Shown here: positions 1 to 21,803 of the stretch, piece by piece
Numbering within the stretch: the stretch's first letter is position 1
How the letters are laid out: every line of letters starts with the position of its first letter
DNA from: Candidatus Zhuqueibacterota bacterium 4484_87
Lineage (GTDB): Bacteria; Zhuqueibacterota; Zhuqueibacteria; Thermofontimicrobiales; Thermofontimicrobiaceae
DNA length: 34,033 bases
Assembly (NCBI GenBank): GCA_002085355.1
Contig: NATN01000012.1
Coordinates: 1-34,033 of the forward strand
Direction: 5' to 3'
Made by a program: the position numbers and the translations under genes
Notes under the pieces: model-generated
Database searches by the model: none
Told to the model about the DNA's origin: nothing
The model's input: only the letters and a program-made list of their open reading frames with translations

Positions 1-918
1 CGATTCCGTGTGTCTATTTTGCCAATTGTTACTTCCCAATACAATCGAAAATACGAAAGCGTCGTCATTCGCGTGCTCGATGACCGCAAAGTAATAAAAA
101 ATCTGGATGCCCTTGGATTTGATGAAATAGCCAAACGCGAGTTTGTTAGCGCGATAAAAAAACCACAGGGAATGGTAATCCTGACAGGGCCTACAGGAAG
201 CGGTAAGAGCACAACTTTAGTAGCTGCTCTGAACTATGTGATGAATCCCGAGCTCAATGTACTGACGGTTGAGGACCCGGTGGAATACAACATTCGAGGC
301 GCGAGGCAGTTGAAGATCAGCCACAAAATGGACTTTGATCAGGCAATTCGGGCAATTTTGCGGCATGACCCGGACATCGTCATGGTGGGTGAGATCCGTG
401 ATGCGAAAACGGCTGAGATTGGTATCAAATTGGCAAACACGGGTCATTTAACCTTCAGCACCTTGCATACGAACGATTCAGCCAGCGTTGTTTCACGACT
501 ATACAAAATGGGAATCGAACCCTTTTTGATCGCCTATGCCATCAATTTGGTTGTGGCGCAGCGCCTTGTACGGAAATTGTGTCCGCACTGTCGTAAGCCA
601 ATCAGTGAAAGCGAAAAAGAGAATGCGTTACAGTTAGGAATCACAGAAGAGGAATTGGAGAAAGCAACAATTTATGAGCCTGTTGGTTGTGACAAATGCA
701 ATAGAGGCTACAAAGGAAGAATGGGAATTTACGAAGCGCTCCCATTTACACATGAGATCAGAAAAATTATTTTAAAGGCATCACAAGAATTAGATGAAGA
801 TGCCGTCAGAGAAGCAGCCCAAAGGCATGGGATGCTTACACTAAGGCAGTCAGCAATTCGGCTGGCATTACAAGGAGTAACCAGTCTGGAAGAAGTAGCT
901 GCCGTAACTTCAGAATAA
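1..918 (+). CDS. pilB: Type IV pilus assembly ATPase, PilB/GspE family (5' part lies upstream of the window)
   Basis: Frame is open from base 1 (RFRVSILP...). Walker A GPTGSGKST, Asp box TVEDPVEY, Walker B LRHDPDIVMVGEIRD, His box TGHLTFSTLHTND, and Zn tetracysteine CPHC...CDKC, which marks extension ATPases. Confidence 0.93.
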   Translation, partial: RFRVSILPIVTSQYNRKYESVVIRVLDDRKVIKNLDALGFDEIAKREFVSAIKKPQGMVILTGPTGSGKSTTLVAALNYVMNPELNVLTVEDPVEYNIRGARQLKISHKMDFDQAIRAILRHDPDIVMVGEIRDAKTAEIGIKLANTGHLTFSTLHTNDSASVVSRLYKMGIEPFLIAYAINLVVAQRLVRKLCPHCRKPISESEKENALQLGITEEELEKATIYEPVGCDKCNRGYKGRMGIYEALPFTHEIRKIILKASQELDEDAVREAAQRHGMLTLRQSAIRLALQGVTSLEEVAAVTSE

Positions 919-935
919 GAAAGCAGAGGAATGAC

Positions 936-1337
936 ATGGGAAAAGTACTATTGGTTGATGACGATCCTGTCATGCAACGTTATACGGGGCACATTTTGGA
1001 AAAGGGCGGTTTTGATCTTGATACGGCATCTGATGCCTTCGAGGCCATCAATAAAGCGCAACAAATTTCGTATGATCTGGTAGTTGTTGACTTGGTTCTC
1101 CCTGGTCCTTTGAATGGCGTTGATACAATCAGAGAAATCCGAAAAAGCTCTCCGTCGGCTAAAATTATCGCCTATTCAGGGTTCAGCGACAATGATATCA
1201 CGGAAAGAGTTTCGCTTGCAGGCGCCGATCATTTTTTAACAAAACCATTTAAACCAAATGAATTAATGGCTCTCATTCGGGGGAAAGCTGAAAATGAGAT
1301 CGCCACTAAAAGCGATCTTAACATTCAATTTGCTTAA
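936..1337 (+). CDS. Single-domain response regulator (CheY-like receiver), copy 1
   Basis: VLLVDDD, phosphoacceptor in VVVDLVLP, IIAYSG, FLTKPF. No output domain. GAGGA RBS upstream. Confidence 0.92.
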   Translation: MGKVLLVDDDPVMQRYTGHILEKGGFDLDTASDAFEAINKAQQISYDLVVVDLVLPGPLNGVDTIREIRKSSPSAKIIAYSGFSDNDITERVSLAGADHFLTKPFKPNELMALIRGKAENEIATKSDLNIQFA

Positions 1338-1384
1338 AACACGAAAGGAATCTTTATCATCAACAACTGTGAGGAGGATGCGTA

Positions 1385-1741
1385 ATGGGCAAAATTTTAA
1401 TTGTCGATGACGAGAAGGACATGTGCGAAGTTCTGGCACAATATTTCTCCAGTGAGGGGCATGAGGTGGATTGTGCTTATGATGCGGAACAGGCAATTCA
1501 TAAATCACAAAATAAAAAATACCATTTTGCGCTCGTTGATCTGGTTATGCCGGGCCGCATGAATGGCATTGATGTGATTCGCCAAATTAAGCAGGATTCA
1601 CCAAAAACAAAAATCATCGCATATTCAGGATTTTGCGATCTGGATATTGCGGACAGAGTTGTGAATGCCGGCGCAAATCATTTCCTGACAAAGCCATTTA
1701 AGCAACAACAGTTATCGTATCTTATGTTTAACACGAATTAG
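1385..1741 (+). CDS. Single-domain response regulator (CheY-like receiver), copy 2
   Basis: ILIVDDE, ALVDLVMP, IIAYSG, FLTKPF. GAGGAGG RBS upstream. Confidence 0.92.
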   Translation: MGKILIVDDEKDMCEVLAQYFSSEGHEVDCAYDAEQAIHKSQNKKYHFALVDLVMPGRMNGIDVIRQIKQDSPKTKIIAYSGFCDLDIADRVVNAGANHFLTKPFKQQQLSYLMFNTN

Positions 1742-1799
1742 AAAACAGTAAATAATAGGTGACAGTAAAGCCAGACAATTAAATCGCGGAGTAAAAAAA

Positions 1800-2189
1800 A
1801 TGGCAAGGATACTAATCATCGACGACGAAGTGGAAATGCGGGATATTTCGTCTCAAATTTTCGAACTGGAGGGACATGACGTTTCAACTTCTGCTGACGC
1901 AGAGGATGCAGTTTTCAAAATAAAAAATAACAAATACGATGTTCTATTGGTTGACCTTGTATTGCCCGGCAAGATGAATGGGCTGGACATAATCAAACAG
2001 GCGCGGATCAATATGCCTCGGGCGCACATCATCGCATATTCCGGTTTTAGCGGTCACGACATAACTGAAAAAGTCATTCGTGCCGGAGCGGATAATTTTA
2101 TCACTAAACCGTTTAAGCGAAAGGAATTGGTGGATTTGGTAAATGCATTTGTGTATCGAAGTAATGATAAATCAGCGATCATTCAATAA
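1800..2189 (+). CDS. Single-domain response regulator (CheY-like receiver), copy 3
   Basis: ILIIDDE, LLVDLVLP, IIAYSG, FITKPF. GGAG RBS upstream. Confidence 0.92.
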   Translation: MARILIIDDEVEMRDISSQIFELEGHDVSTSADAEDAVFKIKNNKYDVLLVDLVLPGKMNGLDIIKQARINMPRAHIIAYSGFSGHDITEKVIRAGADNFITKPFKRKELVDLVNAFVYRSNDKSAIIQ

Positions 2190-2240
2190 ACAGGACGAAA
2201 AAGATCAAGACGATGGATTTATTAACAGGTGAATTGAGCG

Positions 2241-3212
2241 ATGCAAAAATTAAATTCGATTTCAAAAGGAGTTACCAAACTGTCAATGAATATCCACGAT
2301 TATGAACAGATATCATTTCGGCAGGCTCTGAAGTGGTGGAATCTTGTACGCTGGTTATCCACCATCAGTTTTCTCGCGTTGGGAATCATCCAAATAAGCG
2401 CCAGTGGCTTTACTTTTCCTATTCCCGCTTTTGTCTTGACATTGTTGGCAATCACTCTCTTGAACACTGTTTACAGTCTCTGGATCGATCATTTTCATTA
2501 CAACATCATTTTTCCCATTATTCATAATTTGCTGGATATCATCATTTTTTCGATGGCTATTTTTATGACCGGTGGGATTAAAAGTCCCTTTTTGTGGGGC
2601 TATCTTATCCCGATTCTTACGTCAAGTATCACCATAGGCAGGACGATGGGATTTTTTGCTTCATCATTGAGCATTCTCAGTCTGTGGGCTATCTCGCAGC
2701 TTTCGCAGTCTCCCATTATGATAAATTTGAAAGCGAATTATGACGTCTTCAATTACAATCAATTTGAAATAAAAACTCTTCTCTCCTACGCTTGTTTGTT
2801 CTTTCTGGTCTATTTTATTTCGTCTTTTTTGGCAAATTCATTGCGCGAGCAAAATTCAAATCTAAAAGCGCTGAATGAACAATTAATAGACAAAACGAAT
2901 CAGATTTTGAAATCTCAGGAAAAAATATTGGAGATGGAACGTCGCGACACACTTTACCAGGCGGCAATGACAATGCAGCATGAAATCAATAATCCTCTGA
3001 CTATTGTATCGCTGAACACCGAAATGTTGGTTAAGGAAACTCCTTACGTCAACCCAAAACGGATTAAGACCATTAATGATTCAATTGAGAGAATCAAAAA
3101 CATTTTAAATAAAATGCGCTCACTACAGGCAAAATCTCTGAAAAAACGGGATGCGCTGAGTGGGCTGGAAATTTTTGAATTAAATGAAAACGAAAATCAG
3201 ATAATTTTGTGA
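2241..3212 (+). CDS. Polytopic membrane protein with PilS-like sensor region and HisKA (DHp) domain but no HATPase domain
   Basis: About 6 hydrophobic segments including PilS-like MTGGIKSPFLWGYLIPIL, a coiled coil, and H-box QHEINNPL (His247). The protein ends about 75 aa later with no N/G1/F/G2 boxes. The start could instead be the ATG at 2286. Confidence 0.8.
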   Translation: MQKLNSISKGVTKLSMNIHDYEQISFRQALKWWNLVRWLSTISFLALGIIQISASGFTFPIPAFVLTLLAITLLNTVYSLWIDHFHYNIIFPIIHNLLDIIIFSMAIFMTGGIKSPFLWGYLIPILTSSITIGRTMGFFASSLSILSLWAISQLSQSPIMINLKANYDVFNYNQFEIKTLLSYACLFFLVYFISSFLANSLREQNSNLKALNEQLIDKTNQILKSQEKILEMERRDTLYQAAMTMQHEINNPLTIVSLNTEMLVKETPYVNPKRIKTINDSIERIKNILNKMRSLQAKSLKKRDALSGLEIFELNENENQIIL

Positions 3213-3213
3213 A

Positions 3214-4431
3214 ATGGAAAATTTGAATAAAATATTTGATAAAATCTTGGAAAATGTCCCGGATTATGCAACAGATATTGAGCGACAGGTATTGATTCGT
3301 CGAGGCATCAAATCTTTGACTCCGAACGAATTGAATGTGATCATTTCACAAATTAATAACTATTTGATCTTTATGCGCGAATCAGAAGCGTCAGACATTG
3401 AAATCGGTGGCTCTACAGCACTCGGACGGATCTGGTTTCGCGTGTACGGAGAGAAAAAGCCTTATCCTGAATTAGGGCTCTTTACGCAGGATCAGACAAA
3501 TATTTTTTGCCAGGCGATTTTAAGCGATAAACAATGGGAGCGCCTTTTGGATTGGCGTGCAACTGATTTCTCCCATCTCATTGAAAAAGACGGCACACTC
3601 TACCGTTGGCGCGCCACCGTTTATTTTGACATGGGACATTTAGCGCTCAACATGCGCGCTATTTCAGATAAAATTTATCCTTTCGCAAGCTATCAATTTG
3701 CCCCCGGCGTAGCAAAGCATTTATCGCTGGGGCATGAAAAACAGGGTCTGGTGCTCATCACAGGCATCACTGGCAGCGGGAAAAGCACAACCATGGACAG
3801 TATCATTGACGCTAACAATCGCAGCTTTTCCGGTCATATTGTCATCATTGGGGATCCAATAGAGCAGATCCACCAGTCAAAAAAGTGCATCGTCCGGCAC
3901 CGCGAAGTAGGTAGAGATGTACTTTCTTTCAAAGATGGAGCTGTTCAGGCGCTGCGCCAGGACCCGGACATAATCGTTGTCGGCGAAATGAGAGATTCGG
4001 AAACGATTATGACTTGTCTTGAAATTACAGACACAGGGCATAAAGTATTTTCAACATTGCACACAAGTTCTGCGGTGGAAACGATCGACAGAATCATTGC
4101 CGAATGCCCTCCTATCGAACAGGAGCGGGTGCGCAACCGATTGGCTGATGTGCTGAAAGTTATTATTTCGCAAAAATTGGTTCCAACAATCGATGGAAAA
4201 TTAATACTTGCTAAAGAAATAATGGTCGTTGACAGCGCTGTGAAAGCAGCAATTCGTAACAATAATACCCATGAAATTTACCAGATGATCAGCGAACGCG
4301 GTCATTTGGGAATGACCACGCTTGAACAAGATTTAGTTCGACTATACAGAAACAGGCAAATTTCAAAAGAAAATGTGTATAACTTTGCAAATAACAAAAA
4401 ACGAGCGCATGAATTAATGACTTCTGAATAA
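3214..4431 (+). CDS. pilT: PilT/PilU-family pilus retraction ATPase
   Basis: Walker A GITGSGKST, GDPIE, ALRQDPDIIVVGEMRD, TGHKVFSTLHT, AIRNLIRE-like AVKAAIRNN, GMTTLEQDL. No tetracysteine motif. Confidence 0.9.
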   Translation: MENLNKIFDKILENVPDYATDIERQVLIRRGIKSLTPNELNVIISQINNYLIFMRESEASDIEIGGSTALGRIWFRVYGEKKPYPELGLFTQDQTNIFCQAILSDKQWERLLDWRATDFSHLIEKDGTLYRWRATVYFDMGHLALNMRAISDKIYPFASYQFAPGVAKHLSLGHEKQGLVLITGITGSGKSTTMDSIIDANNRSFSGHIVIIGDPIEQIHQSKKCIVRHREVGRDVLSFKDGAVQALRQDPDIIVVGEMRDSETIMTCLEITDTGHKVFSTLHTSSAVETIDRIIAECPPIEQERVRNRLADVLKVIISQKLVPTIDGKLILAKEIMVVDSAVKAAIRNNNTHEIYQMISERGHLGMTTLEQDLVRLYRNRQISKENVYNFANNKKRAHELMTSE

Positions 4432-4447
4432 GTGAATTGAGGGAACG

Positions 4448-6040
4448 ATGGACAAATTAGCTTTAGGAATTTATTTTGATGGACTTTACGTCCACGCTGC
4501 GCTTGTGAAAAAAGAACACGGCTTAATTTCCATAGAGTCGCTGGAATCTTTCCGGCTTTACGATTCGCTGGAGCAGACAGAAGAGATCGAAAACAGCGAC
4601 CTGCCGCAAAATGGTGAACAACCAACAAATCCAGAAGATCCGTTTGGTTTTGATCTTGATGGATCTGCCCAATCAGGTGATGTCACTGAGGCAAGGGGCA
4701 ATATTGACGTCATCGTTGAAATGCTGGCAAAAATGGCGCCGGAAGGCTGCCCTATCGCCTTTAATTTGCACAATTCCAATGTCATCTACACTGTCGTCGA
4801 TGTTGACAAAAAGGTATCGAAATCTCAGCTAAAAAAACTCATCGCGGAAGAATTAGCAAAGGCAAACGAACAGGAATCCGTTTCCGGACAGATTGGTTTC
4901 GCGCCAATCGCTGATTTAAGTTATCTGGGCGTTGTTCATAAAGACCCATTAATTTTCGCAAATTTACTATCAGAAGCTGTCCGCCTGATGCATCGACAGT
5001 CTCAACCGATCAAATTGATTGATACCATTGAATTTTCATTGGCAGAGCTTGTCCATGAAACTTATCAGTTATCTGATGTGGACAGAACAGCCGTCGTCCT
5101 GTTCAGCCAAAATTTCACAAAAATTTTCTTCATGAAGGGCTCGAAAATCGATTACATTTTGCCAACCATTCACATCGGCATTCGATCGAGCAAAATTTGC
5201 GAAACCGCATTTTCAAAACTGTTATACGAATTAGATTTCAAAGGGCTTGAACTACCGCGGCAGATCGTGCTGACAGGAGAAGTTGATGCGATAGATGCGG
5301 AAGATTTTTTCCAGACAAAATTCCCGAACATTAACATCGTGAAATTTGAAGTCAGTGAATCCTATCTCGCGCCGCATCTTCAAGGCTTGGCAGGCAAAAC
5401 CTCGCCCTACAGCGTTGCCATTGCTCTGGCAACAAAAGTCTTGCGTCCCAAAAAAGAAAGAATTTACAAAAACAACTTTGTTCCGAAAAAAGTCAGGGAA
5501 CAGCAATCCCAATTTGTTATTGCCTGGCATGGCTTTGCCATGATAGGTCTGGTTTTTTTGACGCTCATTTTGCTTTTTTTAAAATCTTCGGCGATCAATA
5601 GCGATATTGCCAAAGTGAAAAATTCACTTGAAGAAATCAATTTTGATCTGTCGCAGCTCAAAAACGTTGAGCATGATGTGGATAGCCTGCGTCTGGAAAT
5701 TAGCCATTTGGAAAAAGGAACATCACTGATTGATTCGTTATCGGCTGTTACAACTCGTTGGACGCCCTTGATAAAAACCTTCTCTGATGCGTATGAAAAA
5801 ATTGGGAAATTTACTATCAAAAAATTTGAAAGCGTCAGCGATGAAAAAATGGTTGTGAGTCTGAATTTGTCAAGATTGGAGCAAGTCGCCCTGCTGGAAA
5901 GATTTATCTCTGATAGCAAGGTTCTGTCAGTGGGTCGTCAGAAAACCGAAGATCAAGGCGAAATACTGGAAATGACAATCGAATGCGATTTGAGTCATCA
6001 GAAATTAAAAAAGCCTGAAGCGGCAAAAATAAATAATTAA
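4448..6040 (+). CDS. PilM-like (actin-fold) plus PilN-like fusion protein
   Basis: N-terminal LGIYFDG strand, IVLTGE and PYSVAIALA motifs as in PilM. Then NNFVP (PilN INLLP-like), one TM helix and a coiled coil. Position between pilT and the pilO/secretin genes fits. Confidence 0.7.
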   Translation: MDKLALGIYFDGLYVHAALVKKEHGLISIESLESFRLYDSLEQTEEIENSDLPQNGEQPTNPEDPFGFDLDGSAQSGDVTEARGNIDVIVEMLAKMAPEGCPIAFNLHNSNVIYTVVDVDKKVSKSQLKKLIAEELAKANEQESVSGQIGFAPIADLSYLGVVHKDPLIFANLLSEAVRLMHRQSQPIKLIDTIEFSLAELVHETYQLSDVDRTAVVLFSQNFTKIFFMKGSKIDYILPTIHIGIRSSKICETAFSKLLYELDFKGLELPRQIVLTGEVDAIDAEDFFQTKFPNINIVKFEVSESYLAPHLQGLAGKTSPYSVAIALATKVLRPKKERIYKNNFVPKKVREQQSQFVIAWHGFAMIGLVFLTLILLFLKSSAINSDIAKVKNSLEEINFDLSQLKNVEHDVDSLRLEISHLEKGTSLIDSLSAVTTRWTPLIKTFSDAYEKIGKFTIKKFESVSDEKMVVSLNLSRLEQVALLERFISDSKVLSVGRQKTEDQGEILEMTIECDLSHQKLKKPEAAKINN

Positions 6041-6058: not shown

Positions 6059-7030
6059 ATGAATAAGATTGTAAGAAATACACTTATTTTGTCCTCTGTA
6101 TGGGTATTGATGCTGATTATTGGTCTGGTGTATATTTATGGTCACCAGAAAAAAATACTCGACAAACTCAGTGCAGAGGAAAAGAAAAAATCAGAACGAT
6201 TGGAGGATCTACGTTCTCTTCAAAGTGATTTATCAGAATTGCTCTCCTATTACAATCAGTTAAAGGAAAACAGTTTGCGCTTCAAAGGGACGCTGGCTTC
6301 GTTTGTTTCTCCGGGCGAAACATTTGATTACATTCGTCGCGAGCTGTTGAGGACAAATTCTTCGATCAAACTGGATATGGACTTTGAGAGTGAATCACCA
6401 TTTAAAAATATGATTAAACGGAATTATAATTTGAAAGGTACTGGGAAATTTACCGATATTTATAGTTTCATCTGGTTTCTGGAAAATGGACCAGTCTTTT
6501 ATAATTTAACATCATTGACTGTTGAAAAGCTTGATCCAACAGCGAGCGCAGAAATTGAATTCACTCAGGCAGACGAAGCTACATTCAACTTCAGCCTCAT
6601 CGGTTATGATCGCAAAGAAGGCCCTAAAATCGCTGAAATTAACAATGAGTACGGAGAGCCAGAGCATATCGTCAATTTGCTTGAGGAGATAAATCCGTTT
6701 CGCAAAGCAACTGTCAAAGCTCGTCCGTCTCAATACGCAAACAATTCGCCGGCTCCAGTGAAAAGACCATATACAGCGCGCGCATTGGAGACAAACAGAC
6801 AGTCCGCTGCTCCAAAATTACCGGAAATAAACAGCGCGTGCGAAGTTTTAGCAATTACCCCTTTTTCTGTACTCATCAAAGAAGCGAATGGTAAAATAGT
6901 AAAACTCCGCAAAGGCGACAAAATTTACGGCGGGACCTTAACTTCATTGGACGCAAAAACAGGAAAGGCAATTTTTCAGTATGACAATTCATCAGGATCG
7001 AGAAAAGTTGTATTAACAATGCAAAAATAG
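6059..7030 (+). CDS. PilO-like protein with C-terminal PilP/GspC-like beta domain
   Basis: N-terminal TM, coiled coil, and YNLKGTGKFTDIYSFIWFLEN (PilO-like). Then an NPF motif, a linker and VLIKEANGKIVKLRKGDKIYGG (PilP-like). Confidence 0.65.
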   Translation: MNKIVRNTLILSSVWVLMLIIGLVYIYGHQKKILDKLSAEEKKKSERLEDLRSLQSDLSELLSYYNQLKENSLRFKGTLASFVSPGETFDYIRRELLRTNSSIKLDMDFESESPFKNMIKRNYNLKGTGKFTDIYSFIWFLENGPVFYNLTSLTVEKLDPTASAEIEFTQADEATFNFSLIGYDRKEGPKIAEINNEYGEPEHIVNLLEEINPFRKATVKARPSQYANNSPAPVKRPYTARALETNRQSAAPKLPEINSACEVLAITPFSVLIKEANGKIVKLRKGDKIYGGTLTSLDAKTGKAIFQYDNSSGSRKVVLTMQK

Positions 7031-7032
7031 AG

Positions 7033-8670
7033 ATGACAACTATGAGAAAGATGATAATGACAACAGGCGTGGCGATGTGTATTTTTCTCACTGCCGCACT
7101 TTTTGCTCAAAATGAACTACCGCGAGAATACACGCCGCCCGAAGAGTTAATTTCACTCAACAGTGAAATTGACATTGCAACAGCTCTGGATTTATTGAGC
7201 GAATATGCAATCCAATTCGCCAGGAAACCCATTTACGATCCGGAAAAGCATACCGGCCCCATCGGCGTGGACATTCGCAGCATTGCGTGGAAAAAAGCGC
7301 TCGGATTAATTCTCAGCAGGCGCGGACTCTGGTACGTTGAAAAACCGCGTTACATTGAAATCGTCAATGCCGACGAGTATGAATCCAGACTCACGGGTGG
7401 AGACAATTTAAAGCTCGGTGCTGGAGAAGACCTCAAGCCAAATAGCCGGGAAGTAAAGATTGAGACTGTGTTTTTTGAAGGCGACAGAAAAGCATTGAAA
7501 GAAATCGGATTGGATTGGAGTACATTTTATCAAGGAAAAGTTTTCATCGATGCAAATCAGTTGGGTTCGCTGGACATCACTGACAACATGTTTAGCGTTG
7601 GTGCGCGAATCCCGAAAAATGTTGTTGGAGTAGATTTAGAGCTATTGTTAAAAGCATTTGATTCAAAAAAAATCGGCAAAGTGCTGGCGCAGCCGCAGGT
7701 CGTCGTCACTGAAGGAAAAGAAGGCGTCATTCAAGTCGGTCAAGATTTTTCGATAAAAGAACGGGATTTTGCCGGAAATGTCATCGATCGATTTTACAGC
7801 ACTGGTACGATTCTCAGAGTGATGCCCTATGTCATTCAAAAATCAGGCCCGGATGGTAAACCCCTTGAGCCAGTCATTTTTCTGAAAATTCACGTTGAGC
7901 GCAGCACTGCCCACCCGGATGTCGTAAGCACAATTATCAACAAATCCCAGGCAAATTCATATTTACAACTTTACGATGGCGAAGAAACCCTGATTGCTGG
8001 CCTGTACTCCACCGAAAAAAATAGTGTGCGCAAAGGAGTGCCGATTTTGAAGGATATGCCCTGGTGGTTCTTTGGTTTTCCCTACATTTTTGGTTACAAC
8101 CGCACAGAAGAAAACGAGAAAGAATTGGTTATTATCATCAAAGCAAGCCTGTTGAAAGATGTACTAACGAGGCAAAAAGTAACTAAAACGAATGCACTCA
8201 ATTTAAGTCATACAGTAGCACAAAATTACCAAAGCGACTCATTTATCAGAAATGACTTTTCTCAAGTTAATGTCTATCAAAACACTCCGGTGCAGGATTT
8301 TAAGGTTACCACAAATCCGGAGGCAGCGATGATCTCGCAACCCTCATCAATGCCGATACAATCAACAGCGCCGATAGTACAAAATTATAGTCCGCTTCCA
8401 AAATATTGTTTGGGAAAGGTAGTCAAAATAAAGGACCAATTTGCCCTAATCAATTGGCAAAGCAAACCGGAAGTTTTAAATATCGACGGAAGAACAGCAT
8501 CTGTTGTGAGAAAATCAAACAGCAATCGAAAAGTAACAATTATTGGAATAGCCAAAATTCTCGGTACAAGGCAGAATCGATCTGTCGCTAAAATTGCTAA
8601 AAAGAGGCTCAATTCACAAATTCGTGCCGGGGATTTCATTGTTGTCAAACTTAATGCAACTGAGGATTAA
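7033..8670 (+). CDS. pilQ: Outer-membrane secretin (PilQ/GspD family) with C-terminal extension
   Basis: Signal peptide (..ALFA|QN), REVKIETVFFE, KVLAQPQVVVTEGKEGVIQVGQ, GTILRVMP, DGEETLIAGL, GVPILKDMP, KELVIIIKA. Confidence 0.88.
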   Translation: MTTMRKMIMTTGVAMCIFLTAALFAQNELPREYTPPEELISLNSEIDIATALDLLSEYAIQFARKPIYDPEKHTGPIGVDIRSIAWKKALGLILSRRGLWYVEKPRYIEIVNADEYESRLTGGDNLKLGAGEDLKPNSREVKIETVFFEGDRKALKEIGLDWSTFYQGKVFIDANQLGSLDITDNMFSVGARIPKNVVGVDLELLLKAFDSKKIGKVLAQPQVVVTEGKEGVIQVGQDFSIKERDFAGNVIDRFYSTGTILRVMPYVIQKSGPDGKPLEPVIFLKIHVERSTAHPDVVSTIINKSQANSYLQLYDGEETLIAGLYSTEKNSVRKGVPILKDMPWWFFGFPYIFGYNRTEENEKELVIIIKASLLKDVLTRQKVTKTNALNLSHTVAQNYQSDSFIRNDFSQVNVYQNTPVQDFKVTTNPEAAMISQPSSMPIQSTAPIVQNYSPLPKYCLGKVVKIKDQFALINWQSKPEVLNIDGRTASVVRKSNSNRKVTIIGIAKILGTRQNRSVAKIAKKRLNSQIRAGDFIVVKLNATED

Positions 8671-14238: not shown

Positions 14239-14742
14239 ATGGGAAAAGGTGATCTCATATTAGTTATCGGCGGACTGTTGCTCCTGTCGATGTTCACGCT
14301 CTCGATTAATAGCTCCATTACAGAGAATAGAAAGACGCTTTACTCGAGCGAAAGTGTGCTGAATGCGTTGGCTCTTGCTGAAAAATACATTGAGGAAGCC
14401 GAAGCGCTTCGATTCGACGAAAAAAAATCAGCCACTATTCCCAGTTCATTCACGAATCCCAGCCGTCTCGGTCCGGATGATAATGAATATTATCCTAATT
14501 TCGATGACATCGACGATTTTAACTATTTCACTTATACCGATACTTCTTCAGGCAATGTACCGTACACGATTCAGATCAGGGTTTTTTATACGACACTTTC
14601 AAATCCTGATCAGATTTCTACCAGCAGAACTTACTTTAAAAGAATGGTCGTAAATATCTCATCACCATTTATGAAAAAGATCAACGATAAAACGATCACG
14701 TTGAAAAAACTCTTTGCTTATCATTATTTTTATAGTGAATAA
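14239..14742 (+). CDS. Minor pilin-like protein (PilV/MshD-like), cassette B
   Basis: N-terminal hydrophobic helix, YIEEAEALRFDE, LGPD..E...FDDIDDF, KRMVVNI. Confidence 0.62.
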   Translation: MGKGDLILVIGGLLLLSMFTLSINSSITENRKTLYSSESVLNALALAEKYIEEAEALRFDEKKSATIPSSFTNPSRLGPDDNEYYPNFDDIDDFNYFTYTDTSSGNVPYTIQIRVFYTTLSNPDQISTSRTYFKRMVVNISSPFMKKINDKTITLKKLFAYHYFYSE

Positions 14743-14762: not shown

Positions 14763-15347
14763 ATGAATGCAATAAGGGAATCAATACTGGCGCTGTTTCT
14801 TGCGGGCTGGATCATCATGATCGCTCTTCGTGTTAATACTAATACGACGCTTCACCTATATCACACGCAACAGAATGTGCTCAATCAAGAGAGTATGCAC
14901 CTACTGACTGATATTATCGAATATGATTTCCGTAAAATCGGTCATGGGTTATTAAATCCTCTCGGCGCCATTCAAGTCGCTGACAGCAATCGCATTGTAT
15001 TTTCCTATGATAAAGATCCGTCATTAGCGTATGATTCAATTAAAGTTGTTTATAAAATGGCCCCCATTGTACGTCGCAGTCACGTGTTCAACAAAATGCT
15101 CATCCGCAAAGAAAACTCAACAAAAATCACCCGTTTTCCGTTTGGCATTTCAAGATTTCATTTGAAATATTATAATAAACTGGGACAATTGTTGCCCACT
15201 CCGGTAGTATCTGATTCACTGGCAAGCATCCGAGAAATCGAAGTTTCCATCACGTTGGAAAGCAATAACCTTTCAGAAAAAGGATACGACCGGGCAAGAT
15301 ATGTGAGCCGCTTTGTACCCAAGAATCTTTTGAGTCATTACGAATAA
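14763..15347 (+). CDS. Minor pilin-like protein (PilW/GspJ-like), cassette B
   Basis: N-terminal hydrophobic helix, IEYDFRKIGH, FHLKYYN, IREIEVSI, PKNL. Confidence 0.62.
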   Translation: MNAIRESILALFLAGWIIMIALRVNTNTTLHLYHTQQNVLNQESMHLLTDIIEYDFRKIGHGLLNPLGAIQVADSNRIVFSYDKDPSLAYDSIKVVYKMAPIVRRSHVFNKMLIRKENSTKITRFPFGISRFHLKYYNKLGQLLPTPVVSDSLASIREIEVSITLESNNLSEKGYDRARYVSRFVPKNLLSHYE

Positions 15348-15368: not shown

Positions 15369-16634
15369 ATGGGACGCTACGTTGCATTCATCATCATGGG
15401 ATTTTTTATCAGCACTTCTACCCTGCGGATGCAGGCTAATCGCTACACGAGTGCCAGCGTGAACAATTTTTCAACGAAATATAAAAAACTTGTTTTAAGA
15501 AATATCGCCAACACTGGGGCTACTGTTGCGTTGAATGCATTGACTGTCAATATTAACACAACAGCAGGGGTTTCAAACAGGCCTCTTGACGGTGGCACCT
15601 ACTCCTATTTCATTGAAAGGCAGCAAGACGACCCCAATTTAGGACCTACAGAAATTCGCGTCACTTCAATCAGTCGTTTCCTCGGCATGACGGACACGAT
15701 TATCGTGTTGTTGACAAGACCCTCTTTTTCAAGATATGCATATTTCACAAACCATGAAGGAAATATCTGGTTTGCCACAGGCGATACAATCTATGGCCCT
15801 TGCCATACCAACACCTATTTTCAAATGATGGGGCAACCAGTTTTTTATGGCAAAGTAACAAGCTCCAGAGTATATAATTCTCATTCTCCTTACAGAAAAT
15901 ATTACCACGGATCAACAAATCCCCAATTCCTGGGCGGCACAGAGTGGGGAGTGCCCGAACTCCCGATGCCTGATCATATACCCCAGGATCTGATTGATGC
16001 CTCGCAGAACGGCGGAATTTATATCTCTAAAAGACATGTCTGGATCCAATTCCTCTCAAATGGGAGGGTAAAAATAGCTGCCAAAAATTCTCCGAGTCCT
16101 CCGCATTCATGGCAATATACGACTTACAATTTAAATTCCATCAATGGTGTCATCTATGTGAACAATTGGGGAGCCAGACCTGTCGTTCGCGTCAAAGGAA
16201 CAGTGAATGGAAACGTGACTGTCGGTACTCGAGGTTACATTCGAATCACTGACGACATTGTATATGCAGATGATCCGAGAACGAATCCAAGTTCAAATGA
16301 TATGTTGGGATTAGTTGCCGAGCGGGACGTTATCGTAGCGAATAACCATCATGATCAGGACAGGACGATCCAAGCGAGTATTATGACGCTGAATCCTTCT
16401 GTTGCTCCTAATAAAAACTTCTGGGTCGATCGTTACAAAAATGATCGTTACGGAAGGCTGCATCTGTTGGGTGGGTTAATTCAAAATTCCCGCGGCGCCG
16501 TCGGTTTGGTCGGTAGTTACTGGTCGCGAAAAGGCTACCTCAAAGATTATCATTGGGACTCTAGATTAATGAAAATGAATCCCCCTTATTTCCCGACTTT
16601 GTTCGCCTTGAAAAAAATCTCCTGGTGGGAGTAA
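15369..16634 (+). CDS. PilX-like protein with DUF4900-like C-terminal domain, cassette B
   Basis: N-terminal hydrophobic helix and LRNIANTGATVAL (PilX_N-like). FSRYAYFTNHE..IWF.TGD.I.GP.HTN, DMLGLVAE and C-terminal ISWWE. Confidence 0.62.
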   Translation: MGRYVAFIIMGFFISTSTLRMQANRYTSASVNNFSTKYKKLVLRNIANTGATVALNALTVNINTTAGVSNRPLDGGTYSYFIERQQDDPNLGPTEIRVTSISRFLGMTDTIIVLLTRPSFSRYAYFTNHEGNIWFATGDTIYGPCHTNTYFQMMGQPVFYGKVTSSRVYNSHSPYRKYYHGSTNPQFLGGTEWGVPELPMPDHIPQDLIDASQNGGIYISKRHVWIQFLSNGRVKIAAKNSPSPPHSWQYTTYNLNSINGVIYVNNWGARPVVRVKGTVNGNVTVGTRGYIRITDDIVYADDPRTNPSSNDMLGLVAERDVIVANNHHDQDRTIQASIMTLNPSVAPNKNFWVDRYKNDRYGRLHLLGGLIQNSRGAVGLVGSYWSRKGYLKDYHWDSRLMKMNPPYFPTLFALKKISWWE

Positions 16635-16943: not shown

Positions 16944-17004
16944 AAGATATTATTTCGCTCGTTTTATTCATATTTAGTAAAATAGCTTCCCCAAAATAAT
17001 TCAA

Positions 17005-17020: not shown

Positions 17021-17077
17021 TAAATGAAAAGTGAACAAGTTACTTGTAAAACTCTCAAATATGAAAGGGGATGGGAA

Positions 17078-17704
17078 ATGCGTCAGGCAAAATTATTTTG
17101 GGGATGTGTGGTCATTTTTGAGATGTTGTTTCTCTTACTTGGCGGAACGCATCAAGCATGGACACAATCAGACTTTTCTGCAAAACCGCTGAACGTCATT
17201 TTTATTTCCAGCAAAATCGAAAATGCAGAAGCGATCAAAAATGCGGCGGATGAAGATGCCGTGACCGTAATCTACGATTTTGAAAATGCGACTTTACGGC
17301 AATTTAATTTGACGCTCCAGGAACTGGTGCAATGGAAAAAAAGGAAAATCGATCATCTGATGCTTTTTTGCCACGGTGCGCCGGGAACGATTATTTTAAC
17401 CGCGAAAGATATCATCAATGTAAAATCGCTGAAAAAACAAGCTGATGAATGGAAATTTTTCGGCAATATGTTCAACCGCGACGCCACCATTGACTTCTAC
17501 GGTAGCGAGATCGGCTGGGGGGAAGAAGGCAAGAAATTAGTGACTTCACTCTCGCAAATGACCGGTGCAAACGTTCGCGCGAGCATTAATCCGTCGGGCA
17601 ATATCCATGATGCTGACTGGAAATTGGAAATAAAGACCGGTGACAATAATTCCTCTTGCCCGATCAACTTTTCACAATTAGCTAAAACGCCCCTGTATTT
17701 TTAG
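17078..17704 (+). CDS. Stand-alone exported DUF4347-like protein
   Basis: IDHLMLFCHGAPG, DFYGSEIG...GKKLV..LSQMTGANVRAS...GN...DWKLE. N-terminal signal-like segment. The ATG at 17078 has a purine-rich RBS (the ORF track starts at 17024). Confidence 0.75.
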   Translation: MRQAKLFWGCVVIFEMLFLLLGGTHQAWTQSDFSAKPLNVIFISSKIENAEAIKNAADEDAVTVIYDFENATLRQFNLTLQELVQWKKRKIDHLMLFCHGAPGTIILTAKDIINVKSLKKQADEWKFFGNMFNRDATIDFYGSEIGWGEEGKKLVTSLSQMTGANVRASINPSGNIHDADWKLEIKTGDNNSSCPINFSQLAKTPLYF

Positions 17705-17710
17705 ATAAAT

Positions 17711-17780: not shown

Positions 17781-17826
17781 CATCTGATTGGTTAAAACAA
17801 AAAATACAGCAAATGAGAATGCAGCT

Positions 17827-19221
17827 ATGGAAAAGAACAATAACGATCCGAGGACAGTGCTTGTCGTTGATGACGACATAGTTGATCTGAAAATTATGGA
17901 GCGTTTTTTTTTAAACAAAAACTATCCACACTTGCTTGCCAAAAATGCTACTGATGGATTATCTCTGTTTCGCAAACATCATCCAAAAATCATTTTTATT
18001 GACCTGCTGCTGCCGGACATGAATGGCATTCAACTAATGGAACAAATTTTGGACGAAGATTCGGACGTTTCCATTGTCATCGCTACAGGTCATGCTTCTG
18101 TAGAAACCGCCGTAGAAGCGATCAAAAAAGGGGCGTGCGACTATATTACCAAGCCGATTGACATGACTCGACTGAATCTGCTCACAGAAAGGTTGATGAG
18201 ATCGCAGCAGGTTTTGATGGAAAAAATGCTTTTGCAGACCCGGCTCGATGAACTTTTCGGTTATCATAATTTTATTGGACAGAGTCCCGCGATAAAAAAT
18301 ATTATCAGAAAAATCGAACAAGCAGCACCCACGAGTTCCACCGTACTCATCACTGGCGAATCCGGAACAGGGAAAGAACTATGCGCCAATGCAATTCATC
18401 AGGCGAGTCCGAGAAAAAACAAGCCGTTTATCAAACTAAACTGCGCAGCCTTGCCTGAAAATATCATTGAAAGCGAGCTATTCGGTCACGAAAAAGGAGC
18501 GTTCACTACAGCCATTCAGAAAAGAATCGGCAAGTTTGAATTGGCAGATGGAGGCACCATTTTCTTAGATGAGATCGGCGAATTATCCCTGTCCATACAG
18601 GCAAAATTGTTGCGTGTACTGGAAAATCAGGAATTTGAAAGGATTGGTGGGAACGAGACAATCAGAGTTAACGTACGCCTACTCGCAGCGACCAACAGGA
18701 ACCTCAGTGAAGCTGTAGAAAACGGTCTTTTCCGCAAAGATCTGTTTTATCGGCTAAATGTCGTCAACATCCACATTCCGCCGTTAAGAGACAGGCGCGA
18801 AGATATTCCTTTGCTGTTGAGCCATTTTCTGAAACATTTCAGCGAGCAAATGAACAAGCCGATCAAATCCATTTCTCCTAAAGCACAGGCAATGCTTGCT
18901 TCTTATAGCTGGCCTGGAAATGTGCGGGAACTGGTAAACACCATCGAACGCGCTGTTGTGTTTTGTGAATCAAACACGCTTACGGAACAGGACTTGCCGG
19001 ACCAAATATCAGGGAAAAATTCACAGAGAGAGGATGGCACAGACATTCCCATTATGCCGTTAGCTCAGGTTGAAAAAAAATTGATAGAGAAAGTACTTCT
19101 GGAAACAAATTGGAATTTGCGTCGTGCTGCAAAAATTTTAGATATTCACCGAGGCACTCTGTACAGCAAAATTGAAAAACATGGCATTAACAAAAACAGC
19201 TTGCTGATGGTCATGAACTAA
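17827..19221 (+). CDS. Sigma54-dependent response regulator (NtrC/PilR family: REC-AAA+-Fis HTH)
   Basis: VLVVDDD, IDLLLP, GESGTGKE, ESELFGHEKGAFTTA, TIFLDEIG, RKDLFYRL, WPGNVREL and C-terminal HTH. ATG at 17827 preferred over TTG at 17788. Confidence 0.93.
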   Translation: MEKNNNDPRTVLVVDDDIVDLKIMERFFLNKNYPHLLAKNATDGLSLFRKHHPKIIFIDLLLPDMNGIQLMEQILDEDSDVSIVIATGHASVETAVEAIKKGACDYITKPIDMTRLNLLTERLMRSQQVLMEKMLLQTRLDELFGYHNFIGQSPAIKNIIRKIEQAAPTSSTVLITGESGTGKELCANAIHQASPRKNKPFIKLNCAALPENIIESELFGHEKGAFTTAIQKRIGKFELADGGTIFLDEIGELSLSIQAKLLRVLENQEFERIGGNETIRVNVRLLAATNRNLSEAVENGLFRKDLFYRLNVVNIHIPPLRDRREDIPLLLSHFLKHFSEQMNKPIKSISPKAQAMLASYSWPGNVRELVNTIERAVVFCESNTLTEQDLPDQISGKNSQREDGTDIPIMPLAQVEKKLIEKVLLETNWNLRRAAKILDIHRGTLYSKIEKHGINKNSLLMVMN

Positions 19222-19292
19222 ATTAACGGAGATTTTTTTCTCCGGAAAAATTTCTTTAAAATTACTTTCATCAAAGAACGAGGTGAATCATT

Positions 19293-19727
19293 ATGTCTCC
19301 TCAAATTGACAACCAAATCGCTGGCAAAAAGCCTGCAAAAAAGATGCTCATCATTGACGATTCTGAAGTCAATCGTTACTTGTTGGAGACAGTGCTTAGT
19401 CAGTTGGGCTACCAAGTAAGTTCTGCAGAGGATGGCAAGTCAGGACTGGATAAATTCAAACAAAACAGACCGTTCATTACATTTTTAGACATTGTTATGC
19501 CCGGAAAATCAGGAATGGAAATTTTGAGACAGATAAAACAAATTTCTCCGTCATCTATTGTCGTCATGGTGAGTTCATTTTCGAGCAAAGAAAATCTTTA
19601 CGAAGCGAAAAATGCTGGAGCTAATTGGTTCCTCGTCAAACCAATCACGGCGTCAAAAATAGAGGAATTAGTGGTTTATTTTGAAAAGAAAAGCATAGAG
19701 AAAAATCTAAAAATTGAGTCGGAGTAG
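19293..19727 (+). CDS. Single-domain response regulator (CheY-like)
   Basis: MLIIDDS, FLDIVMP, VMVSS, FLVKP. GAGGTG RBS upstream. Confidence 0.9.
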   Translation: MSPQIDNQIAGKKPAKKMLIIDDSEVNRYLLETVLSQLGYQVSSAEDGKSGLDKFKQNRPFITFLDIVMPGKSGMEILRQIKQISPSSIVVMVSSFSSKENLYEAKNAGANWFLVKPITASKIEELVVYFEKKSIEKNLKIESE

Positions 19728-19729
19728 TT

Positions 19730-20074
19730 ATGATTTGCAAATCTTGTGGTGCTGAGAATAAAGACTGGGCGTCATATTGTACACAATGCGGATTGCCGCT
19801 TGGCGATGTGTGTCGTTGCTCCTTCGTTAACGAACCGGGTGACCTTTACTGCGGAGGCTGCGGCAAACCGTTGATGCCAAACGAAAATGATAATTTGAAA
19901 CGAAACCCGTCCAGCATGAATGTTGAATTTGGCAAAATGACACTTTCTGAATCCCAAATTAAAAAGCTCATAAGAGAAAGTTTGTTGATCAAAACAGATG
20001 ATGAAGAAAACATCAGTCAAAAGGACATCGATTTGATTTTTTCCATGGAAACAGAATCAGCTTCACAAGAGTGA
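19730..20074 (+). CDS. Double zinc-ribbon protein with acidic C-terminal tail
   Basis: CKSC, CTQC, CRC and CGGC motifs. Tail ENISQKDIDLIF. Starts 2 bp after the upstream stop. Confidence 0.8.
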   Translation: MICKSCGAENKDWASYCTQCGLPLGDVCRCSFVNEPGDLYCGGCGKPLMPNENDNLKRNPSSMNVEFGKMTLSESQIKKLIRESLLIKTDDEENISQKDIDLIFSMETESASQE

Positions 20075-20111
20075 ACAGTATCATAAAATAGGCTATGCAC
20101 TGAGGACAAAT

Positions 20112-21803
20112 ATGGCATTTCAAGAAGATCAGATTTTCATTCAGGAATTGATAAAAAAAGGTCTACTGACAAAATCTCAAATTATTCAGTCGCAAAACTC
20201 TTTGCGGGAACTGCTTCAACGCGAGGGAATTGCTAAAGCGTTAATCACCCATTTCAAACTCGATGAAACCAAATTAGCGCAATCCATCGCTGAAATTTTT
20301 AACGTTCCTTTTTTGGAACAGGTAAACGGCCTCTCTCGAATAGATATTGAGGAATTGCAAACAGTTAATACCCCGTCAGATTTTCGCTTCATTCCTGTAT
20401 TAGATGATATCAACGAAGTCACCATAGCCATCAAAGATCCGCCATATCAAAAATTAATTGAATTTCTCAAAAAGGCAACTGACAAACACATTATTCCCAT
20501 CATCTTAAAGGAATCGGACTACGAATATCTGAACAATGAAAAAGTCGTCGAGAAAAAAGTTGACAAGCCGTTGAAAATTGATTTTGACAAGCTTGACGTC
20601 GAGAAACAAGGAAAAAAATGGGCGCTGACCGCAGAACAAAGCGGATCGCTGCCGCCGCCGAACAGCGTGCTTGACAGATTGTTAGAAACCGCCAGTGAGG
20701 CCAATGCGAGCGATATTCATCTGGAAATCACTTCTTCAAAAACAATGAACGTGAGATTTCGCCTTAATGGTGTGCTCCAGCGCGTTGTTACGCTGCCGAA
20801 TGCGTATGCGTCTTCGCTGCCCAAAATTGTCAAGCAAAGAGCTTCCATTGACAATTTTGAGAAAAAAAATGCGGCAGAAGGAAGTTTCTTCATGCAATTC
20901 GGAGGTGTTAAGACAAACTATCGCGTCAATATTATTCCCACTGCTTTCAATGAAAAAATTACGCTGCGCGTAATGAACGATCATCTCGACATCATCCGGT
21001 TGGAGCGTCTGGGACTTTCGTTGCATGATTTACGACGAATCCGCCGACTGTTGTCCCAGCCCAATGCAGTAATTCTTTTTTCCGGGGCAAGCGGAAGTGG
21101 CAAGACAACCACGCTGTACTCCGTATTGAACGAATTGAATCATTTCACGAAAAACATTACCACTGTCGAAATGCCGGTGGAAGCCCATTTGGAAGGAATC
21201 AACCAAATTTCCATCGATCAAAACTCTGCATTAAATTTTGAGAAAGCGATCAAAGCGACTTTCCATCATGACGTGGATGTCCTCGCTCTGGGGGAAATTC
21301 GCTCGAAAGAAGATGCTGAACTGCTTTTAGAAGCGGGATTATCAGGATTGACCGCTTTTGCCACAATACAAGCCTCAAATGCAATAAAAACTCTTTATCG
21401 TCTGAAGCATTTTGGCGTGGACATTGAACAATTCGCTTTGACCTTGCGAGGCATCGTCTCGCAGCGTTTTGTGCGCAAGGTGTGTCACTACTGTGGGCAA
21501 GAATATATTCCTGATGAAGAAATTCTGGCAAAAGCAGGATTGGAGAATCTACCAAAAGATATCAAATTGAAACGTGGAATTGGTTGCAAAAATTGTCTGG
21601 GGACAGGTTATCTGGGCAGGATGCCCATTTTTGAAGTGCTCATTTTTAACGACACAATCAGTTCGCTGCTTGCCCAAAATAGACCCTATCGCGAAATCTT
21701 TGCAGCCGCACTGCATGAAGGTTTCACAACAATGCGTTACGACGGACTTCGCAAAGCGCTGGCAGGAATCACCACGCTCAACGAAGTCCTTCGCGTCACA
21801 TGA
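20112..21803 (+). CDS. Second GspE/PilB-family ATPase with degenerate catalytic motifs
   Basis: ASDIHLE, RFRLNGVLQ, Walker A GASGSGKTTT, CHYC...CKNC, GYLGR. The Asp box reads EMPVE, the Walker B region FHHDVDVLALGEIRS, and the His box SGLTAFATIQA. Confidence 0.85.
   Translation: MAFQEDQIFIQELIKKGLLTKSQIIQSQNSLRELLQREGIAKALITHFKLDETKLAQSIAEIFNVPFLEQVNGLSRIDIEELQTVNTPSDFRFIPVLDDINEVTIAIKDPPYQKLIEFLKKATDKHIIPIILKESDYEYLNNEKVVEKKVDKPLKIDFDKLDVEKQGKKWALTAEQSGSLPPPNSVLDRLLETASEANASDIHLEITSSKTMNVRFRLNGVLQRVVTLPNAYASSLPKIVKQRASIDNFEKKNAAEGSFFMQFGGVKTNYRVNIIPTAFNEKITLRVMNDHLDIIRLERLGLSLHDLRRIRRLLSQPNAVILFSGASGSGKTTTLYSVLNELNHFTKNITTVEMPVEAHLEGINQISIDQNSALNFEKAIKATFHHDVDVLALGEIRSKEDAELLLEAGLSGLTAFATIQASNAIKTLYRLKHFGVDIEQFALTLRGIVSQRFVRKVCHYCGQEYIPDEEILAKAGLENLPKDIKLKRGIGCKNCLGTGYLGRMPIFEVLIFNDTISSLLAQNRPYREIFAAALHEGFTTMRYDGLRKALAGITTLNEVLRVT

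Follow-up and report, generated by a model that had tools for sequence, protein, structure and literature searches.

How is a type IV filament built from pilins that appear to begin without a leader? The question is raised by a gene block of a sediment bacterium, Candidatus Zhuqueibacterota bacterium 4484_87 (GenBank assembly GCA_002085355.1), on contig NATN01000012.1, the whole of which (C271 in our numbering, 34,033 bp) we analysed and call the window. The contig belongs to a 2.72-Mb genome bin (G000) of 274 contigs that is 73% complete and that, by the source names of near-identical proteins, falls in Calditrichota. Positions 1-21803 hold 21 open reading frames (ORFs), all on the + strand, that encode most of a type IV filament machine and a set of signalling proteins. 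The best explanation, to which we give a probability of roughly two in three, is that the locus specifies a complete, retractable type IVa-like pilus whose pilins are translated in a mature-like form and assembled without a prepilin peptidase. A preliminary description of this DNA had proposed a distinct, little-described type IV filament subtype; the components that it listed were recovered on the + strand, at the coordinates it gave, by ORF analysis, Pfam, and NCBIfam.

The 5' end of the window falls inside pilB, the 3' part of which (pilB1) occupies 1..918, and the gene block is thus truncated by the contig end. The end of the reverse-complemented contig C193 overlaps window positions 1-255 over 255 nt with 12 mismatches. 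In the window's orientation, C193 begins with genes for an outer-membrane-type protein and a receiver; three pilin genes in tandem (~135 aa) come next, and then pilC and the 5' half of pilB. In G001, a genome of the same genus, pilB is uncut and the whole array lies on one 156-kb contig, in the same order and with identities of 68-93%: a receiver, two pilins, pilC, pilB, three receivers, the DHp protein, pilT, and pilMN, followed by pilO(P), the secretin, the Big_1 protein, six pilin-like genes, DUF4347, a sigma-54 regulator, a receiver, a zinc ribbon, and PilB2. Because G001 carries all of these genes on one contig in the same order, we assign pilC and the major pilin to the locus of the window. 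Thus, the 21.8-kb block first described is real, but its boundary is not, as it continues on C193 beyond the contig end. Two of the three partners that the preliminary description had wanted located elsewhere in the genome, pilC and the major pilin, were therefore located directly upstream; the third, pilD, was not found, there being no match to Peptidase_A24 (PF01478) in this 73%-complete genome. The break between C193 and the window looks like an assembly gap caused by strain variation. Five of the 12 variant positions in the overlap recur as the same letters in a second metagenome (hydrothermal-vent run X2) and, given these letters and the mismatched overlap, the bin appears to be a mixture of two or more closely related strains. 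When contigs from four DNA runs were mapped to window positions 1-17000, only short pieces were obtained, none of them spanning the contig start.

The second pilin gene on C193 encodes a protein that begins MGQQQLLLIVL.... An AAGGAG sequence lies 7 nt 5' of its ATG, and the only seven open codons upstream include no in-frame ATG, GTG, or TTG; the placement of the Shine-Dalgarno site and the lack of upstream starts identify this ATG as the start. The major pilin has neither a basic leader nor a Gly-Phe-Thr-Leu-Ile-Glu motif, and so does not show the class III signal peptide, a basic leader ending in Gly with Glu at +5; its position 5 is Gln, not Glu. Pilins of this family gave no significant match in Pfam or NCBIfam (N_methyl, TIGR02532), whereas a canonical pilin from G039, a genome of another family in the same class, was recognised at once. 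When Pfam was searched at E values up to 10, the sole match was to ComP_DUS (E 0.035-0.11), which is below threshold and was rejected as the pilin family. An AlphaFold model from a 74-sequence alignment (pLDDT 94) predicts a type IV pilin fold, with a helix at 2-55 and a four-stranded sheet. In a VIA structural search of 48,161 chains, the first 14 of 50 matches were all type IV pilins or pseudopilins (Z 6.9-9.7). Thermus PilA4 was the best of these (Z 9.7, rmsd 3.8, 111 aligned residues, model 2-137 on chain 1-115), followed by Neisseria PilV (Z 9.3), Pseudomonas K122-4 (Z 8.8), and PilE (Z 8.7).

The family is large, with 4784 proteins at E ≤ 0.01 in a 90% collection and 1662 clusters at 50% identity. 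The MGQQQLLL start is identical in 83 of the 150 best representatives, while close variants differing by one or two residues bring the number of such starts to about 121 of 150 (hand count from the table); the remaining representatives are mostly fragments or evidently over-extended gene calls. When metagenomes were scanned with the pilin alignment, 611 stretches matched, of which 559 were relatives; 80 loci were retained. Where at least 5 kb of sequence was available downstream of the pilin, 15 of 24 environmental loci have pilC and pilB there, and the other nine are solitary pilin copies.

These data bear on the suspicion that small, unrelated proteins are involved whose hydrophobic N-termini serve as membrane anchors or as ordinary Sec signal peptides, in which case the leaderless pilin would be an artefact of gene calling or structure prediction. 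The lack of a significant pilin match in Pfam and NCBIfam would fit, as would the Ala-X-Ala-like strings that follow the hydrophobic stretch of the window pilin (...FSASAASA...), but in many members this string is replaced by ...NDQAAS..., and the basic n-region is missing. Cleaved signal peptides are normally variable in sequence, whereas the N-terminal 27 residues are the best-conserved segment of this family. The predicted helix is unbroken over residues 2-55 with pLDDT >90, and full-length pilins can be superposed on it starting at their residue 1. The start codon is set as described above, and in those 15 environmental loci the gene stands directly before pilC-pilB. We therefore regard an artefact of this kind as highly improbable.

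The minor pilins start in the same way. Six small proteins at 12199-16634 form two paralogous triplets, in agreement with the two minor-pilin-like cassettes noted earlier, and all but mp3 have an N-terminal hydrophobic helix. The first triplet consists of mp1 (12199..12687; 31-33% identity to mp4), mp2 (12700..13281; 24-28% identity to mp5), and mp3 (13291..14139; paralogue class of mp6), and the second of mp4 (14239..14742), mp5 (14763..15347), and the large mp6 (15369..16634; DUF4900, 36.7 bits), a candidate tip subunit. Single possible start codons and very short N-termini were found for the minor pilins in five genomes and in 8-12 environmental loci per family; in the window, mp2 and mp4 each have one start codon in frame, and mp1 (MMQNVLLIGA...) has a unique start region and aligns within the mp4 family. 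In the mp4 family, position 5 counted from Met1 (in some members position 6) is occupied by Glu, Asp, or Gln, and hhalign aligns the first 20 residues of mp4 in register with the first 20 of the major pilin (probability 72%). An Asp or Glu stands at position 6 of mp5 across lineages, and the Atlas model of mp5 (pTM 0.72) matches PilW/PpdB/N_methyl clusters with TM scores of 0.79-0.86, which suggests a PilW/PpdB-like fold. The N-terminal segment of the mp6/mp3 family has no acidic residue, and mp6 begins MG[RK]... in five relatives and eight environmental loci. Profiles of the mp4 and mp5 families retrieved nothing meaningful from PDB sequences: the best E values were 0.85 and 0.15, and a Thermus pilin appeared at E 1.8. 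The leaderless pilin-like subunits of the preliminary description are thus borne out by the starts of both the major and the minor pilins.

Leaderless pilins would have no evident need of a prepilin peptidase, and in many near-complete genomes the peptidase goes with canonical pilins and not with the leaderless system. Across 125 genomes of the class, the pilin occurs in 74 and Peptidase_A24 in 73: 32 genomes have the pilin only, 42 have both, 31 have the peptidase only, and 20 have neither. (Two unpublished genomes, G116 and G120, are included, one among the 32 and one among the 42, and two of the 74 pilin-positive genomes, G078 and G038, gave weak partial matches.) Completeness reaches 90% or more in 24 of the 32 pilin-only genomes and 95% or more in 16; G035, G109, and G124 are listed as 100% complete. 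The pilin-only genomes G001, G010, G029, and G035 gave 0 matches to N_methyl, and G000, G001, G010, G029, G035, and G124 each have a single T2SSF gene, the one in this locus. G039 carries two A24 genes with five N_methyl pilins right beside them, more than 1 Mb from its leaderless-pilin locus; at C1:2186236-2189559, the genes for a T2SSF protein, for a pilin whose class III signal is normal (...ESG/FSLTELL..., cleavage at the slash), and for a 249-aa prepilin peptidase stand in a row. With the G039 peptidase as query, the best match in five carrier genomes had an E value of 0.06. A hidden Markov model of four of the class's own A24 peptidases found none in G000, and none in the 4248 ORFs of the 620 kb that surround 80 environmental pilin genes (10 kb to either side at most).

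On the preferred reading, PilB1 and PilC would polymerise the pilin from the inner membrane through a conduit of PilMN, PilO(P), and secretin, a minor-pilin complex (mp4, PilW-like mp5, and large mp6) would prime assembly, and PilT would retract the fibre. Met1 would correspond to residue 1 of canonical mature pilins and Gln5 (in mp4, Glu, Asp, or Gln at 5-6) would stand in the place of Glu5, so that leader removal and N-methylation would be unneeded. The wider proposition is that of a widespread type IV filament lineage that dispenses with class III signal peptide and prepilin peptidase alike, with Met1 replacing the methylated residue 1 and a neutral Gln5, possibly paired with a blocked N-terminus, replacing the Glu5-amine salt bridge; we would put this at even odds. 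By source names and Atlas leads, the lineages involved beyond Calditrichota are Zixibacteria, KSB1, and LCP-89, and the range may perhaps extend to Ignavibacteriota, Balneolota, and Rhodothermota.

Several points weigh against a pilus assembled from mature-like subunits. The pilus is predicted from genes, the pilin fold is predicted rather than solved, and Foldseek, which also ranks pilins first for the major pilin, does so at E values of 0.05-0.09 only. The Glu5 register is exact in part of the mp4 family only, the acidic residue of mp5 being at position 6. Methionine before Gly is normally removed by methionine aminopeptidase, which makes the mature N-terminus uncertain, and Gly2, whose conservation in the family is 90% or more, might be a leftover or else the working -1 Gly of a two-residue leader. 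An A24 peptidase is present in 42 of the 74 pilin-positive genomes, where processing in trans is possible, and nearly all of the genomes are incomplete metagenome-assembled genomes, so a missing gene is no proof of absence.

The last of these points also feed an explanation in which the pilins are processed after Gly2 by a peptidase that is undetectable as Peptidase_A24, because it is divergent, non-homologous, or encoded on unassembled DNA; the system would then be an ordinary type IVa pilus (T4aP) with an extremely short leader. The likeness of Gly2 to the -1 Gly of class III signals speaks for this, but a one- or two-residue leader offers no basic residues for recognition, and mp1, mp2, and mp5 have no Gly near the N-terminus. 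The 24 carriers that lack PF01478 at 90% completeness or more, among them G035, G109, and G124, the G039 peptidase genes that adjoin canonical pilins instead of the leaderless-pilin locus, and the empty 10-kb surroundings of the environmental pilin genes also argue against it. Processing of this kind is, in our view, unlikely.

By scores and folds, the machine proteins appear closest to those of T4aP. Pfam and NCBIfam confirm three ATPases of the type IV pilus family, as first described: the PilB1 part (T2SSE 311.5 bits, TIGR02538 379 bits), PilT (3214..4431), and PilB2 (20112..21803; T2SSE 275.9 bits). The full-length PilB1 orthologue of G001 scores 447 bits on TIGR02538, 392 on GspE, and 325 on TfpB, and against PDB sequences PilB1 ranks Myxococcus PilB first (306 bits), ahead of Geobacter (297), GspE (276), Thermus PilF (258), and BfpD (116); by this ranking of bit scores, PilB1 appears closest to T4aP PilB. 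PilT scores 315.9 bits on TIGR01420 over the whole model (residues 47-396), 3 bits under the cut-off of 319.1, and has 62-89% identity in five relatives. The PilC gene on C193, directly before pilB, encodes two PF00482 domains. The curated NCBIfam cut-offs were missed by far by PilB (447 vs. 675.65), PilC (143 vs. 700), and the secretin, which has 68.9 bits on the PilQ model TIGR02515 with a cut-off of 284. This 545-aa secretin (7033..8670; PF00263 85.1 bits at 210-374) is compact, as first noted, and no AMIN domain was detected in it.

Separate PilM, PilN, PilO, and PilP proteins, as in T4aP, are not encoded here. The profile of the family at 4448..6040, which has no Pfam match, retrieved nothing from PDB sequences (best E 0.44), and a fold search was therefore needed. 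An AlphaFold model from an 18-sequence alignment (pLDDT 75.9) has an actin-like domain at 1-340, a transmembrane segment, an 80-residue helix (coiled coil), and a small alpha/beta domain. In Foldseek against the PDB, its top 10 matches were all PilM (best 5eou, E 5.9e-15), followed by FtsA, with GspL cytoplasmic domains at E 1e-6. These results support a PilM-PilN fusion of 530 aa with a PilM fold and a putative PilN-like part. The next protein (6059..7030, 323 aa) likewise has no Pfam match; ESM Atlas relates it to PilO and PilO+PilP clusters (feature scores 0.91-0.95, structural TM scores 0.37-0.46), a lead that it may join PilO- and PilP-like parts. Of the two fusions in the preliminary description, the PilMN fusion thus stands on the predicted structure, and the PilO(P) fusion is kept as a lead.

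The secretin is followed by a probable lipoprotein of 1136 aa (8674..12084) with seven Big_1/invasin-D3 Ig-like repeats (Big_1 257 bits, seven stretches) and a Cys in its lipoprotein-like ...LFLSCG... N-terminus; adhesin, pilotin, and secretion substrate are candidate roles. In Calditrichota loci, this gene always comes right after the secretin gene; in several other lineages, a weaker homologue lies between mp6 and pilT.

A large surface-type protein always encoded beside the secretin invites a different reading, in which the locus builds no surface pilus but a short pseudopilus within the periplasm, and serves for type II-like secretion, exporting for example the Ig-repeat lipoprotein. The likenesses to a type II secretion system (T2SS) are several. 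One polypeptide combines an actin-like cytoplasmic domain, a transmembrane segment, and a periplasmic domain, which is the architecture of GspL; PilC scores slightly better on the GspF model (159 bits) than on the PilC models (143 and 139); and the large tip-type pilin has no acidic residue, a residue that GspK also lacks. However, T2SS are not known to have PilT, and here a pilT gene belongs to the locus in each of the five relatives and in 12 of the 13 long environmental loci. For the cytoplasmic domain, the match to PilM is far stronger than that to GspL (E 6e-15 vs. 1e-6), PilB1 scores higher on the T4aP model than on GspE, the major pilin is encoded in tandem copies and has a fold closest to T4a pilins, no GspC-type match was detected among the 21 window ORFs (Pfam, NCBIfam), and the pilins are leaderless. 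A further point in favour of secretion is that, in the part of Denise et al. 2019 that deals with it (PMC6668835), the Bacteroidetes 'T2SS' clusters with T4aP, away from other T2SS. We consider a secretion system improbable, slightly more so than processing by an undetected peptidase. The T4aP branch is indicated by PilT, by the PilM fold, and by the T4a-like pilin, while the fusions recall GspL/GspM.

Likeness to the T4aP of Myxococcus, Pseudomonas, and Thermus extends over the PilB and PilT ATPases, the PilC platform, the PilM fold, PilN/O/P-like parts, the secretin, the T4a-like pilin fold, the PilW-like minor pilin, and the nearby NtrC-type regulator and PilS-like sensor domain. The system differs from T4aP in that no pilin has a class III leader, many carriers have no prepilin peptidase, Gln5 stands for Glu5, pilM-pilN are fused and pilO-pilP apparently so, the secretin is short and without a detected AMIN domain, and, PilY1 not being detected, there is an Ig-repeat lipoprotein and a DUF4900 protein instead.

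The organisation is conserved well beyond the window. PilMN was found in 26 of 41 genomes searched. The core order, pilin, pilC, pilB, receiver(s), DHp, pilT, pilMN, pilO(P), secretin, Big_1, and mp4-mp5-mp6, is kept in G001, in G010 of the same family, and in G029 and G039 of another family; G024 keeps it to the end of a short contig, without room for the DHp gene. pilT lies inside the locus in all five of these relatives, and the Big_1 lipoprotein is syntenic in G001, G010, G029, and G039. Only G001 and G010 have the first minor-pilin triplet. In 13 environmental loci, 9 kb or more of sequence follows the pilin; pilT is present in 12 of these and pilMN in 10. Most environmental lineages have the order pilin, pilC, pilB, mp4, mp5, mp6, (Big_1), pilT, pilMN, pilO(P), and secretin, with no receiver/DHp insertion. 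The core gene order thus recurs in other families of the class and on environmental contigs, as the proposed synteny check had asked.

The signalling genes fared differently. Between pilB1 and pilT, the window encodes three single-domain response regulators, REC1 (936..1337; Response_reg 94.5 bits, with the acidic pocket, phospho-acceptor Asp, Ser, and Lys visible), REC2 (1385..1741; 98.5 bits), and REC3 (1800..2189; 87.4 bits), followed by a protein (2241..3212) with a PilS-like six-transmembrane sensor domain (PF25323) and a DHp domain (HisKA, PF00512). Together with REC5 (19293..19727; 90.1 bits) and the receiver of the sigma-54 activator at 17788-19221, this gives five receiver domains, four of them single-domain proteins. 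The compact secretin, the Ig-repeat lipoprotein, the five receivers, and the one DHp protein are thus all present. The REC3 query matches a receiver in G001, G010, G029, and G039, and weakly in G024, and its best match is kept in the loci of these five relatives. Pfam found no HATPase_c, CheA, CheW, or MCP domain in the 21 window ORFs, and the DHp protein therefore has two of the three parts of a PilS-type kinase (six transmembrane segments, DHp, and HATPase_c). All 64 of its 64 homologues (189-341 aa) are without HATPase_c. In this family the membrane domain is better conserved than DHp, the His of the H-box is at least 90% conserved, and it is followed by Glu at +1 and Asn at +4, which we take to be the HisKA phosphatase motif. 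Judged by its domains, this conserved PilS-like family without a catalytic domain would be incapable of autophosphorylation by itself. Likeness to PilS-PilR thus lies in the six-transmembrane PilS-type membrane domain, in a HisKA DHp domain with conserved His, and in sigma-54 regulators in or next to the locus; it ends at the catalytic domain, and the complete kinase near the loci of relatives is a soluble PAS kinase.

That kinase shows the lack of any complete kinase in the preliminary description to be an edge effect. The receiver-pilin genes of G001 and G010 are immediately preceded by genes for a receiver, a complete PAS-HisKA-HATPase_c kinase (363 aa in G001, 355 aa in G010), and a sigma-54 response regulator, and G000 has kinase and regulator orthologues on contig C148 (kinase 67% identity, regulator 81-88% in two frames). 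On C148 (reverse complement 733-3199), the regulator orthologue is split into residues 1-280 and 297-457, by a frameshift or a sequencing error. In G000, unlike in G001, the kinase-regulator pair is not adjacent to pilin genes. A phosphorylation-linked motor control belonging to the machine itself was not supported either. The receiver and DHp insertion between pilB and pilT occurs in Calditrichota loci and in only one of 33 environmental loci of at least 8 kb, and is therefore an accessory of one lineage and not a property of the machine type. What remains of the proposed subtype is a distinct, conserved variant of the type IVa-like pilus for which we found no description in the literature searched.

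For regulation, we propose that the PAS kinase and the NtrC-type regulator control pilin expression. Pseudomonas PilS responds to the membrane pilin pool; the PilS-like protein without catalytic domain would probably be a pilin-sensing phosphatase or a phosphotransfer partner that, perhaps in response to such a pool, tunes the phosphorylation of the receivers between pilB and pilT, with phosphate supplied by the PAS kinase encoded upstream in relatives. With a sigma-54 consensus, one 9/11 promoter match was found 180 nt 5' of the first pilin gene on the reverse complement of C193, and no comparable site at the same place in G001, G010, G039, or G029.

Comparison with described systems that depart from the T4aP pattern brings out the difference. 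MSH pilins carry class III leaders. Where Denise et al. 2019 treat MSH loci (PMC6668835), these are without a peptidase but always co-occur with one from another system, whereas many of the genomes considered here show neither peptidase nor canonical pilins. The putative T2SS chu_3191-3202 of Cytophaga hutchinsonii is likewise a divergent secretin-PilB-PilC-pilin cluster of the FCB group, a likeness that does not imply homology to the window locus. As set out in its description (PMC5553014), the pilins of that cluster diverge strongly and its PilM/N/O/P-like proteins can scarcely be recognised, but a Peptidase_A24 of its own, CHU_3197, is encoded there; PilT is never mentioned in the text of that paper. 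The window system is the reverse, with PilT and without a peptidase of its own.

Searches of the open-access literature (Creative Commons PMC and bioRxiv) turned up no account of leaderless type IV pilins, a pilus in Calditrichota, or the N-terminal motif, the supplementary tables of 'generic' systems (Denise et al. 2019), which may list such loci, excepted. Both the class III signal peptide and its aspartyl peptidase are regarded as universal and defining in type IV filaments. One account gives, in the section concerned, an ATPase, a platform, a filament protein, and the class III signal peptidase as the shared minimal core (PMC13705601), and reviews, as far as the pertinent passages go, treat the peptidase as a marker of the superfamily (PMC4471445). 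A pilin family that starts at Met1 would be a natural experiment on the use of the leader and the N-methyl group, and would bear on pilin insertion topology without a basic leader and on the handling of the buried position-5 charge. If the wider proposition is true, leader cleavage and N-methylation would not be mechanistically required for extraction of pilins from the membrane and their polymerisation. Because profile detection demands a recognisable pilin, such loci would be scored as incomplete or 'generic' in sediment and vent phyla, and MacSyFinder TFF models would, by inference, fail on leaderless pilins too. The PilS-like protein is a smaller second point, as a conserved sensor-DHp module apparently unable to autophosphorylate.

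Some observations concern single genes. The third tandem pilin gene on C193 (2300-2840, - strand) has 5 nt fewer near its 5' end than the second copy, which breaks the frame after ~9 codons; it is either a pseudogene or a repeat collapsed in assembly. The mp3 orthologues of G001 and G010 have 64-72 extra N-terminal residues from MGKAA..., including the hydrophobic helix that is missing here. In the window, mp3 starts three codons after a stop (13281-13300), and a contig from run X1 matches the window from 13290 on, with 372 unmatched letters before; the shortening is possibly a deletion, a strain variant, or a mis-join. Invariant in the globular part of mp4/mp1 proteins is the acidic motif (F/Y)-(D/N)-D-x-D-D-(F/Y/I), which from its sequence looks like a metal-binding loop.

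Downstream of mp6, the block ends in an accessory tail made up of a DUF4347 protein (17024..17704; PF14252 102.8 bits), the NtrC/AtoC-type sigma-54 response regulator (17788..19221; Sigma54_activat 249 bits, Response_reg, HTH_8), REC5, a double zinc-ribbon protein (19730..20074; DZR 33.6 bits, Zn_Ribbon_1 33.9 bits), and PilB2; housekeeping genes follow on the - strand at 21838-34033. The tail is syntenic only in G001, and PilB2 has orthologues in only three of 40 relatives. PilB2 keeps Walker A and four Cys, while its Asp box is changed from EDPVE to E-M/T/S-P-V/I-E. Both His-box histidines are replaced in all three aligned PilB2 sequences, and a match to MshEN (17.8 bits) is below the cut-off of 23.1; from these residues, PilB2 is possibly a regulatory or slow ATPase. 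On metagenome contig L096 (~10001-20330), a leaderless pilin gene that stands alone precedes genes for a receiver, a zinc-ribbon protein, and a PilB2-like ATPase, with further receivers after these, and by this arrangement the tail module of the window accompanies the leaderless pilin family in another lineage.

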